Source: Candidatus Daviesbacteria bacterium (GTDB taxonomy: Bacteria > Patescibacteriota > Microgenomatia > Daviesbacterales > UBA10151). From it: 64,000 nucleotides of DNA. Under the pieces are notes generated by a model that was given only the letters and a program-made list of their open reading frames with translations, had not been told where the DNA came from and searched no databases. The stretch covers positions 4,247 through 68,246 of the forward strand of contig JACPEW010000020.1 of the NCBI GenBank assembly GCA_016183305.1, given 5' to 3'. A program made the position numbers and the translations under genes. Below are positions 44,195 through 45,877 of this stretch, in pieces (within the stretch, counting starts at the first letter, position 1; each line of letters opens with the position of its first letter).

Positions 44195-45877
44195 ATGGTT
44201 AAACTTTTAGACTTTTGGGCTCCTTGGTGTGTAGATCCTCAAACTCCAGTATTAACAGAAAATGGTTATTTGCCTGCTTCAAAAATACAAGTTAATATAA
44301 ATCTACTAACAATTGATCCAAGAACGAAAAAACAGAGTCTTAAAAAGGTTAAAAAAATAAGAATTTTTAAGGATATTCCATCTAAGAGAATAATTTTGGA
44401 AACTGGAATAAATCTAATAGGAGATGTTAATCATCTGGTTTTAACCCAAGAAGGATTTAAGTCTTTAGGCAAGCTTAAGATTGGAGAGAGAGTTTTAATA
44501 AACCCTGTACAGGCTTCAGTTTTCGAACCGATTACTGATACAATCATACTGGAGACCACTGGGAATAATTTTGCTGATAAAGTTTTAAAAAGCTTAAACT
44601 TATTGCCTTTAAGATCAAATGATATCAGATTACCAGTTTTAGCAAGGTTGTTGGGCTTTGTAATGACCGATGGATATTATTTAAGACACAATATTTATGA
44701 AACACATTTTTTTATGGATACGGAAAAGGACGCTCAAGATATAAAAGCGGATTTACAAATTTTAGGTTTTGATAAATTGGAGATTAAACGACAGATCAAA
44801 AATCGCCAAATTGGAGAAAGAAAATTTACAATTAGCATTTTACGTTGTCGTAACTTGAACAAAGCAATATTTTTCTTGCTCAAAGCTTTAGGGGCTCCTG
44901 AAGGAAGAAAGAAAAATCAAGCTTATTTTATTTCGGATTGGATTATGGATGGAGAAAATTCTATTAAAAGAGCCTTTCTGAGTGGGTGGTTAGGTGGTGA
45001 TGGATGTAAAATCACCTATAGAGTAAAACACGAAGGAACAAGTTCTCATGATGCTGGATTTCATGTAAACGCAATCGAATTTCATAAAGAAAAAGAACTA
45101 GAGAAGGAAGGTATACTGTATGCTAAACAATTAGCAATTCTATTTGAGGAACTTGGAGTTGAGGTTAGAGATATATCAAGTAGCGGTGATGAGGATGGGG
45201 TTATTATATATCTTAGAGTTTCGAATTCTTATCCCTCACTACTAAATTTAACCAAGATTGGTTATGCCTATGCTTCGACTAAAAATAAACAAGTCCCCTT
45301 TATAAAGGAGTTTTTGAAGTATAGGTTGTTTGAACGAAGTAGTTATGCTGAGGTTAAAGAAATTGTTTTGAAGCAATTGGCGCTTGGAGTAAGTAATAGA
45401 AGTATAGCCGAAAATTTACAAATTCCTTTACATACAGTAGTCAGTTGGAGATATACAAGTCGCAATTCAAATATCTCGCATCCTTCTAACTCTGGTCAGG
45501 CGCTTTTTACAGAATGGTTGGAAGATAGGCAGGAAGGAAAATTATTGTGGGAAAAGGTAAAATTTATAGGTGATGCTGAGAATCGTGATGTAGTTGGTAT
45601 TACAGTAGCAAATCCCCATACGATTGTGACTAATGGAATAGTTTCTCATAATTGCGGTCCCTGCAGATTAATGAGTTCTATTATTGAAGAACTGGAGAAA
45701 GAATGGGCTGGGAAAGTAGAGGTAGAGAAAATTAATGTTGATGAATCTCCAGATAAAGCTTCTAAATATGGAGTAATGAGTATTCCTACTTTTATTGCCT
45801 TAAAAGATGAAAAAGAAGTAGGCAGGAAAATTGGAGTTACCGCCAAAGAAGATCTTCTTAAGTTGCTGCAATCATAA
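44195..45877 (+). CDS. trxA: thioredoxin precursor containing an intein
   Basis: Exteins [11 protein letters not shown] + [18 protein letters not shown]...[24 protein letters not shown] join to a WCGPC thioredoxin of 85 aa. Confidence 0.85.
   Translation: [560 protein letters not shown]
44228..45652 (+). mobile_element. intein (475 aa) with LAGLIDADG homing-endonuclease domain
   Basis: Starts Cys ([13 protein letters not shown]), block-B-like [18 protein letters not shown] motifs [13 protein letters not shown] and [11 protein letters not shown], HTH ([16 protein letters not shown]). Ends [21 protein letters not shown], followed by Cys+1. Confidence 0.85.

Follow-up and report, generated by a model that had tools for sequence, protein, structure and literature searches.

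Why should the gene for a thioredoxin of 85 amino acids (aa) occupy 560 codons? The question is raised by an open reading frame (ORF) at positions 44195..45877, on the forward strand, of a 64,000 nucleotide (nt) window (the whole stretch of DNA that was analysed; GC content 35.6%) from a Candidatus Daviesbacteria bacterium, a member of the Microgenomates within the Candidate Phyla Radiation (CPR). In this ORF a thioredoxin is divided, within its WCGPC redox motif, by an insert of 475 codons that is very probably a genuine, intact and canonical class-1 intein with a double-motif LAGLIDADG endonuclease, lodged in the only thioredoxin gene of the window. Inteins are thought to concentrate in proteins of replication, recombination, repair and nucleotide metabolism; as a redox housekeeping protein of 85 aa, thioredoxin is uncommon company for them, and very small.

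The ORF forms a single uninterrupted frame of 560 aa, with no substantial overlapping ORF seen on either strand across its extent, and its junctions read ...W/CVDPQ...TNGIVSHN/CGPCRLMSS... (slashes here and below mark the boundaries of the insert, or the corresponding point in genes that lack it). The insertion point falls between the Trp and the first Cys of WCGPC, and the C-terminal extein opens with Cys+1-Gly-Pro-Cys+4 (nt 45653-45664). When nt 44228-45652 (1425 nt, or 475 codons, encoding aa 12-486 of the protein) are excised and the exteins fused in silico, the product is an 85-aa thioredoxin with a restored WAPWCGPC. The same ORF coordinates, junctions, insert length and fused product had been proposed in an earlier note, made from the sequence alone, and all were correct on recomputation. 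The insertion is far beyond what chance would produce: the fused product matches full-length thioredoxins at an expectation value (E) of about 1e-40 and up to 85% identity, and the insert matches the intein segment of the NCBIfam model NF038162 ('intein-containing RtcB family protein') at E 3.7e-53 (aa 12-497).

That the host is a thioredoxin is clear from both sequence and fold. The Pfam Thioredoxin family (PF00085) matches aa 483-559 (E 1.3e-17); thioredoxins in the PDB match the ORF by sequence (E about 1e-18) and, in a Foldseek comparison, superpose on the C-extein of a structural model with a root mean square deviation of 1.1-1.5 Angstrom over 73 residues; and cis-Pro531 (in MSIPT), Cys487, Pro489 and Cys490 are invariant in an alignment of 89 relatives. 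When hidden Markov models built from 89 inteins and 209 exteins were run against all six-frame ORFs of the window, no second intein or thioredoxin was found, the ORF at 44195..45877 being the only one to match.

The identification of the insert as a Hint-type intein, likewise proposed in the earlier note, is borne out by profiles and by structure. In addition to the NF038162 match, the model of the intein C-terminal splicing region, TIGR01443, scores 20.1 bits against a cut-off of 15.6 (aa 469-487), and NF003158, an intein-containing model of the replication factor C (RFC) small subunit, matches at E 1.4e-28. An AlphaFold2 model based on the 89-sequence alignment (mean pLDDT 86.5, pTM 0.80) was compared with the PDB using Foldseek, and the top matches were TliVMA, PhoVMA, PI-PfuI, PI-TkoII and PI-SceI (E 2e-14 to 1e-9). 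The ranking runs from endonuclease-containing inteins through free LAGLIDADG enzymes and mini-inteins to thioredoxins, the last of these matching the C-extein; the full inteins and the mini-inteins Ssp DnaB, Npu DnaB, gp41-1 and Mtu RecA are all matched with a probability of 1.00. The insert has the features of a class-1 intein, namely Cys1, a block-B His within the block-B-like sequence DVNHLVLT (aa 77-84), a terminal His485-Asn486 and, immediately after it, Cys487 as Cys+1, while the WCT signature of class 3 is absent.

Between the two lobes of the Hint fold lies the endonuclease domain. The catalytic Asp of the first LAGLIDADG motif, Asp159, is found in 88 of the 89 relatives and that of the second, Asp269, in all of them, as part of an invariant GGDG. 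The secondary structure predicted by AlphaFold for aa 146-355 fits the pseudo-dimeric alpha-beta-beta-alpha-beta-beta-alpha fold, and the LAGLIDADG enzymes matched by Foldseek include I-Tsp061I (TMt 0.60), E-DreI, I-SceI and I-WcaI. Precomputed matches to PF14528 exist for two distant relatives (P0075 and P0100). In the linker that follows, helices are predicted by the AlphaFold model at aa 367-396, 401-408 and 412-420, and weak Pfam matches to HTH_23 (E 0.031) and GerE (E 0.034) fall at aa 391-422. Upstream of the domain, between the Hint N-lobe and the first LAGLIDADG helix (aa about 105-140 of the window's protein, nt about 44507-44614), an indel of ~32 aa divides the CPR proteins into forms of 529-539 aa and 562-567 aa; it seems to be recent, as the proportion of synonymous differences (pS) between the inteins of L006 (long) and L012 (short) is still low, at 0.36.

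Table 1. Positions of the exteins, the intein and its domains in the 64,000 nt window.
Feature	Position (nt)	Strand	Description and basis
N-extein	44195..44227	+	Thioredoxin aa 1-11; first beta-strand, up to and including the Trp before the redox Cys
Complete intein	44228..45652	+	475 aa, Cys1...His485-Asn486; profiles, structural model, Foldseek and restored thioredoxin
Hint N-terminal lobe	44228..44524	+	aa 12 to about 110; block A (C12) and block B (aa 71-84, His80); mini-intein structures align
LAGLIDADG endonuclease domain	44612..45289	+	aa about 140-365; motifs, conservation and fold
LAGLIDADG motif 1	44639-44674	+	aa 149-160, ending Asp159-Gly160
LAGLIDADG motif 2	44975-45004	+	aa 261-270, FLSGWLGGD269G
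Helical linker, possible helix-turn-helix	45290..45529	+	aa about 366-445; helix-turn-helix segment at nt 45389-45448
Hint C-terminal lobe	45530..45652	+	aa 446-486; block F at nt 45584-45637, block G (IVSHN) at nt 45638-45652
C-extein	45653..45877	+	Mature thioredoxin aa 12-85 (74 aa, nt 45653-45874) plus stop codon

The element is far from being private to this genome. A whole-protein search returned about 90 distinct full-length proteins of the same architecture, from which the 89 aligned sequences were drawn, and at least 89 distinct protein clusters, drawn from assemblies of NCBI, JGI, ENA and Logan, carry an intein at the same site and span CPR bacteria and DPANN archaea (Nanoarchaeota and Micrarchaeota); the exact 560-aa protein recurs in an independent Logan assembly. 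About 60 of the relatives are 57-87% identical to the window's protein, are 529-567 aa long and have a short thioredoxin, with those that are named coming from Candidatus Daviesbacteria or Curtissbacteria; about 27 are 30-36% identical, 557-612 aa long and carry canonical full-length thioredoxins, one of them from a Nanoarchaeota archaeon; and a single relative, at 44% identity, is intermediate. Across the alignment the junctions always read W/C...HN/C[GP]PC, and Cys1, His80, Gly160, GGDG267-270, His485, Asn486, Cys+1, Pro489 and Cys+4 do not vary among the 89 sequences. The assignment of the +1 nucleophile to the N-terminal Cys of CGPC, made in the earlier note, holds for all 89 relatives.

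Scanning one genome per GTDB species with an intein-only alignment gave 18 loci. Fifteen of these are thioredoxin loci, eight of the CPR type and seven others, six of which are titled Nanoarchaeia, Nanoarchaeota or Micrarchaeota while the seventh (L014) bears an 'uncultured Gammaproteobacteria' title; three are in RpoB of Bathyarchaeia and Nitrososphaerales, and one fragment was found in a Methanosarcinales genome. The inteins in RNA polymerase subunit B (L017 3001-4503, L020 3001-4329 and L021 3001-4329) are 28-31% identical to that of the window and have the junctions ...PEGSN/C...HN/CGLVKNL.... The Methanosarcinales locus (L022 3001-3870) is an ORF of 353 aa whose match is confined to the endonuclease and linker (query aa 125-407), with no recognisable splicing ends in the displayed flanks, and may be a free-standing or decayed endonuclease. 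Six loci (L006, L007, L008, L010, L011 and L014) are entitled 'uncultured Gammaproteobacteria bacterium isolate binchicken_...', are Daviesbacteria-like in their thioredoxin-intein organisation, and look to have been given placeholder or incorrect taxonomy. A profile search with the intein-only alignment added little that was new, other than the mini-intein alleles described below.

Genes that lack the insert are equally informative. The in silico spliced sequence retrieved thousands of thioredoxins, the best matches being 84-85-aa proteins of Candidatus Daviesbacteria or Patescibacteria, identical over their full length at up to 85% of positions, and the intein-free 84-85-aa Daviesbacteria thioredoxins begin with the same 11 (or 12-13) residues as the N-extein. 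The short (about 85-aa) Patescibacteria thioredoxins P0102, P0105, P0112 and P0124 are orthologues of the mature product, which they equal in length and resemble at up to 85% identity, and with which they have the WCGPC and cis-Pro motifs and the gene neighbourhood in common; they are, however, without the 1425-nt insertion, and their ...TGG/TGY... junction is the presumed empty homing site.

The gene order around trx in the window is that of the intein-free locus L001, namely UvrD (reverse strand), trx, DNA_binding_1 (MGMT-like), TIM, LytR_cpsA_psr, Pol3-delta-C and PurAcPhos/fn3/dockerin (reverse strand). A second intein-free locus, L002, has this order without DNA_binding_1, and the intein-containing locus L023 is arranged as in the window. 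L001 and L002 are orthologues of the window's locus in which the insertion site stands empty; the intein-free alleles envisaged in the earlier note do, then, exist at the syntenic position. The DNA of the empty site reads ...TGGGCTCCTTGG/TGTGGACCATGT..., an example of an intein-less trx site from L002 or L001 being TTAGATTTTTGGGCACCGTGG/TGCGGGCCCTGCCGAGTTATG.

The classical homing cycle involves three allele states: empty, endonuclease-positive and endonuclease-less. All three coexist at the thioredoxin site. The endonuclease-less state is represented by three mini-inteins of 187-188 aa (P0227, P0228 and P0229) at the same W/C...HN/CGPC site, which keep the splicing blocks and have lost the LAGLIDADG domain; the end points of the deletions appear to differ among them, suggesting that the endonuclease was lost independently. 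When exteins are ordered by nearest-neighbour identity, intein-positive and intein-negative sequences interleave, the nearest sequence being a negative for 29 of 89 positives and a positive for 39 of 120 negatives. P0057 and P0058 carry an intein about 60% identical to that of the window, but their thioredoxins match at only 42-47% identity, are full-length at the N-terminus and are encoded among different neighbours.

Substitution patterns between the window and its closest relative, L023, bear on both the maintenance and the age of the element. The ratio of non-synonymous to synonymous substitution rates (dN/dS) stands at 0.19 for the whole intein, 0.18 within the endonuclease domain and about 0.11 for the extein, and purifying selection acts on the whole element. 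In the same comparison, pS is 0.27 for the intein (bootstrap 0.23-0.32), 0.48 for the extein and 0.58-0.70 for five flanking genes. As pS is lower in the intein than in its flanks, the intein appears to be younger than the genomic background, which is a signature of lateral homing, and the value for the extein fits co-conversion of the sequences adjoining the insertion. The direction of the difference is the same in the pairs L006/L012, L007/L008 and window/L005. These sequence comparisons indicate that the thioredoxin intein has probably undergone recent lateral homing.

Splicing by class-1 inteins follows an established four-step pathway, which can be laid over the residues identified here. 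Following translation of the 560-aa precursor, Cys1 would attack the Trp11-Cys12 bond in an N-S acyl shift; the N-extein would then pass by trans-thioesterification to Cys+1, the Cys destined to be the nucleophile of the CGPC dithiol; Asn486 would cyclise with the assistance of His485, releasing the 475-aa intein; and an S-N shift would complete the mature thioredoxin of 85 aa. Once released, or while still part of the precursor, the intein would cut an intein-less trx at the conserved sequence ...TGGGCNCCNTGG/TGYGGNCCNTG..., the predicted target site, and repair of the cut allele would copy the intein in. We infer these splicing and cleavage activities, and the target, from the anatomy, the conserved catalytic residues, the empty and mini-intein alleles and the synonymous divergence described above. 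The precursor is very unlikely to act as a reductase, since the first strand and the Trp would be separated from the dithiol by 475 residues.

The position of the insert raises an alternative to a purely selfish cycle. The catalytic Cys of CGPC, which is exposed to solvent, doubles as the +1 nucleophile, Cys+4 lying three residues downstream, and splicing should need reducing conditions because the established chemistry requires Cys+1 to be a free thiol. The intein might have been co-opted as a redox switch, in which a disulfide between Cys+1 and either Cys+4 or Cys1 would block trans-thioesterification, causing the precursor to accumulate until reduction, possibly by mature thioredoxin, allowed it to splice and thereby coupled the supply of thioredoxin to the redox state of the cell. 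It is in keeping with such a role that Cys1, Cys+1 and Cys+4 are the sole cysteines invariant in all 89 sequences, and that the intein persists across CPR and DPANN lineages with its splicing residues intact. There is also precedent for reversible inhibition of natural inteins by disulfides involving a catalytic Cys, splicing of the Mycobacterium smegmatis DnaB intein 1 (DnaBi1) being arrested in this manner (PMC6195587), and the same article refers to earlier cases in which extein or block cysteines were the disulfide partners.

Other cysteines are conserved within individual clades. The CPR clade has two more, both in the endonuclease domain (window aa 218, nt 44846-44848, and aa 271, nt 45005-45007). 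The clade of DPANN-type inteins with long thioredoxins has one, in a GHC motif of the Hint N-lobe, which is present in 27 of 28 sequences and absent from the CPR clade; it lies at column 94 of alignment A1 (reference aa 63), about 17 residues before the block-B His, and is a possible alternative disulfide partner.

Against co-option, the intein-free alleles of sister lineages, the mini-inteins and the signature of recent lateral spread are all in accord with a selfish homing cycle. That alleles without the intein are abundant speaks against any dependence of the host on it, and the empty sites show that it is not needed. Insertion at the most conserved site of the host is moreover a general habit of inteins, which calls for no adaptive explanation, and groundwater CPR bacteria are largely anaerobic, meaning that an oxidative signal may be rare. 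We regard the redox switch as unlikely on this evidence. Somewhat more doubtful is the broadest form of the idea, in which a natural redox-gated maturation switch would operate beside the selfish element, mature thioredoxin could reduce the trapped precursor, and the intein would in addition have passed from archaea to CPR bacteria.

Several observations weigh against the reading of the insert as a canonical and actively homing intein. The Pfam Intein_splicing model (PF14890) scores 23.0 bits for this protein, below its gathering cut-off of 35.8, although precomputed matches exist for homologues, and a phmmer search of the PDB sequences with the intein alone yielded marginal matches only (E >= 0.02), for which reason relatives of known structure were sought by comparing folds. 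No Pfam LAGLIDADG family matches the window's protein at E <= 1, and the endonuclease assignment therefore rests on motifs, conservation and fold. The earlier note was right to recognise two LAGLIDADG motifs, which are present with conserved catalytic Asp residues and the expected fold, while its helix-turn-helix is weakly supported (E about 0.03) and a match to a Pfam LAGLIDADG profile, by which the endonuclease was to be checked, did not materialise. The position normally occupied by the block-B Thr is Asp77, Asp being found in 61 of the 89 relatives and the canonical Thr in 27, and the block-F position that is usually Asp is Gly; both departures are clade-wide rather than private to this sequence, and on account of them splicing efficiency could be atypical. 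Finally, the contrast in synonymous divergence rests on few pairs, with the extein being short (84 codons) and its interval wide, and a lower synonymous rate in the intein could possibly have arisen through other causes.

The block-B and block-F substitutions and the sub-threshold Pfam score might alternatively signify a decayed, non-splicing Hint/LAGLIDADG relic, or a bacterial intein-like (BIL) domain capable of cleavage only, in which case the gene would effectively be a thioredoxin pseudogene. The public annotation could be taken in the same sense, for the NCBI pipeline missed the full gene: the GenBank protein MBI2315231.1 (P0062), named 'thioredoxin family protein', corresponds to nt 44948-45877 only, the last 310 aa of the ORF, starting at an internal Met within the endonuclease domain, so that the N-extein and 250 aa at the start of the intein go unannotated. 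The 560-codon frame is nevertheless uninterrupted, the nucleophiles and the His-Asn are invariant in 89 of 89 sequences, and the dN/dS values of both extein and intein are low. TxxH, the canonical form of block B, and DxxH have both been maintained over long divergence in the alignment, and BIL domains are without the arrangement of Asn and Cys+1 placed precisely inside a conserved host motif. A relic or BIL domain is thus very improbable. The source is a metagenome-assembled genome, and the GenBank name is compatible with a multidomain fusion, but the probability of a chimeric contig, a binning error or a 'thioredoxin family' fusion in place of an insertion is negligible, given that identical junctions were recovered independently in at least 89 protein clusters, that the architecture recurs in 15 GTDB species representatives and the exact protein in a separate Logan assembly, and that the N-terminal 11 aa and C-terminal 74 aa make up one thioredoxin and hence a split domain.

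With the insert read as an intact class-1 intein, its nearest structural counterparts are the archaeal inteins PI-PfuI (1dq3), PI-TkoII (2cw7) and Tli and Pho VMA (7qss, 7qst), and yeast PI-SceI (1vde). These are built from the same three parts, with a double-motif LAGLIDADG endonuclease interrupting the Hint domain and an additional DNA-binding region, and they too have Cys1, His-Asn at the end and Cys+1 as nucleophile. Identity to them is, however, 12-15%, and their hosts are ribonucleotide reductase (RNR), DNA polymerase and V-ATPase; unlike them, the thioredoxin intein has Asp for Thr in block B and resides in CPR bacteria and DPANN archaea. Redox-responsive inteins reportedly include those of Pyrococcus abyssi MoaA and PolII and of Mycobacterium tuberculosis SufB, as well as Ssp DnaE with an engineered CPGC 'redox trap'. 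In the redox-responsive inteins the catalytic Cys can be tied up by a disulfide and the hosts are replication, cofactor or Fe-S assembly proteins, whereas here a natural CxxC abuts the C-terminal splice junction and the host is a disulfide reductase, with Cys+1 its catalytic nucleophile.

By sequence, the closest relatives of the thioredoxin intein are those of archaeal RtcB-family, RFC, aRF1, Pus10, radical-SAM, ribosomal protein S12 and RpoB proteins, all of which differ in host and insertion site; the inteins of P0093-P0100 are 26-28% identical to it, and the more distant relatives found are in archaeal aRF1, Pus10, RtcB, radical-SAM and S12 proteins. That the closest sequence relatives are all archaeal suggests an archaeal origin for the thioredoxin intein of CPR bacteria, and the family as a whole looks to be archaeal. 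The CPR copies would then plausibly represent an inter-domain acquisition via the universally conserved sequence encoding WCGPC, probably through DPANN thioredoxins.

The intein carries no foreign signal in its base composition (GC 0.333, against 0.356 for the window), and an insertion of transposon type was considered and rejected, there being no terminal inverted repeats and no target-site duplication flanking nt 44228-45652. Neither tRNA genes nor Rfam families at gathering score were found across the whole 64-kb window. A scan for promoters and terminators gave counts at or below the shuffled expectation and as a whole is uninformative; a single promoter-like site lies ahead of the ATG of the ORF, at 44157-44184. 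The slot between UvrD and trx is variable: in the window it holds a 298-aa ORF (43251-44147, forward strand) with no Pfam match and a low-complexity Ser/Asn/Pro segment, in L001 it is empty, and in L002, L003 and L004 it contains a Fic/MerR gene, with an additional PIN/HTH_17 pair in L002 and L003.

Full-text searches of the literature turned up no account of a natural intein in thioredoxin, and next to nothing about inteins of CPR bacteria, in agreement with the impression in the earlier note that thioredoxin was not a described host. The word thioredoxin is absent from the main text of a 2016 intein census (PMC4760082), its supplementary tables lying outside this check. In public databases the relatives go under the names 'thioredoxin family protein' and 'hypothetical protein' and, in one case (at JGI), 'intein/homing endonuclease'. 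What is new is the host and insertion site of an otherwise canonical intein, and the novelty is one of description, the sequences being already public. For genome annotation, the implication is that automated pipelines mis-call this gene and that inventories of CPR thioredoxins may be wrong.

The placement of the element is of interest for conditional splicing, in that the +1 nucleophile is the catalytic Cys of the enzyme and a natural CxxC stands at the junction, and the locus, with an N-extein of 11 aa and a C-extein of 74 aa, offers a compact and readily expressed natural system for asking whether the redox chemistry of an extein controls splicing. Were a redox-gated switch to prove true, the main disulfide reductase of minimal CPR and DPANN cells would be post-translationally self-regulated. 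As an intein within WCGPC, the element clearly illustrates a homing cycle still under way in uncultivated CPR bacteria, at an insertion site common to bacteria and DPANN archaea.

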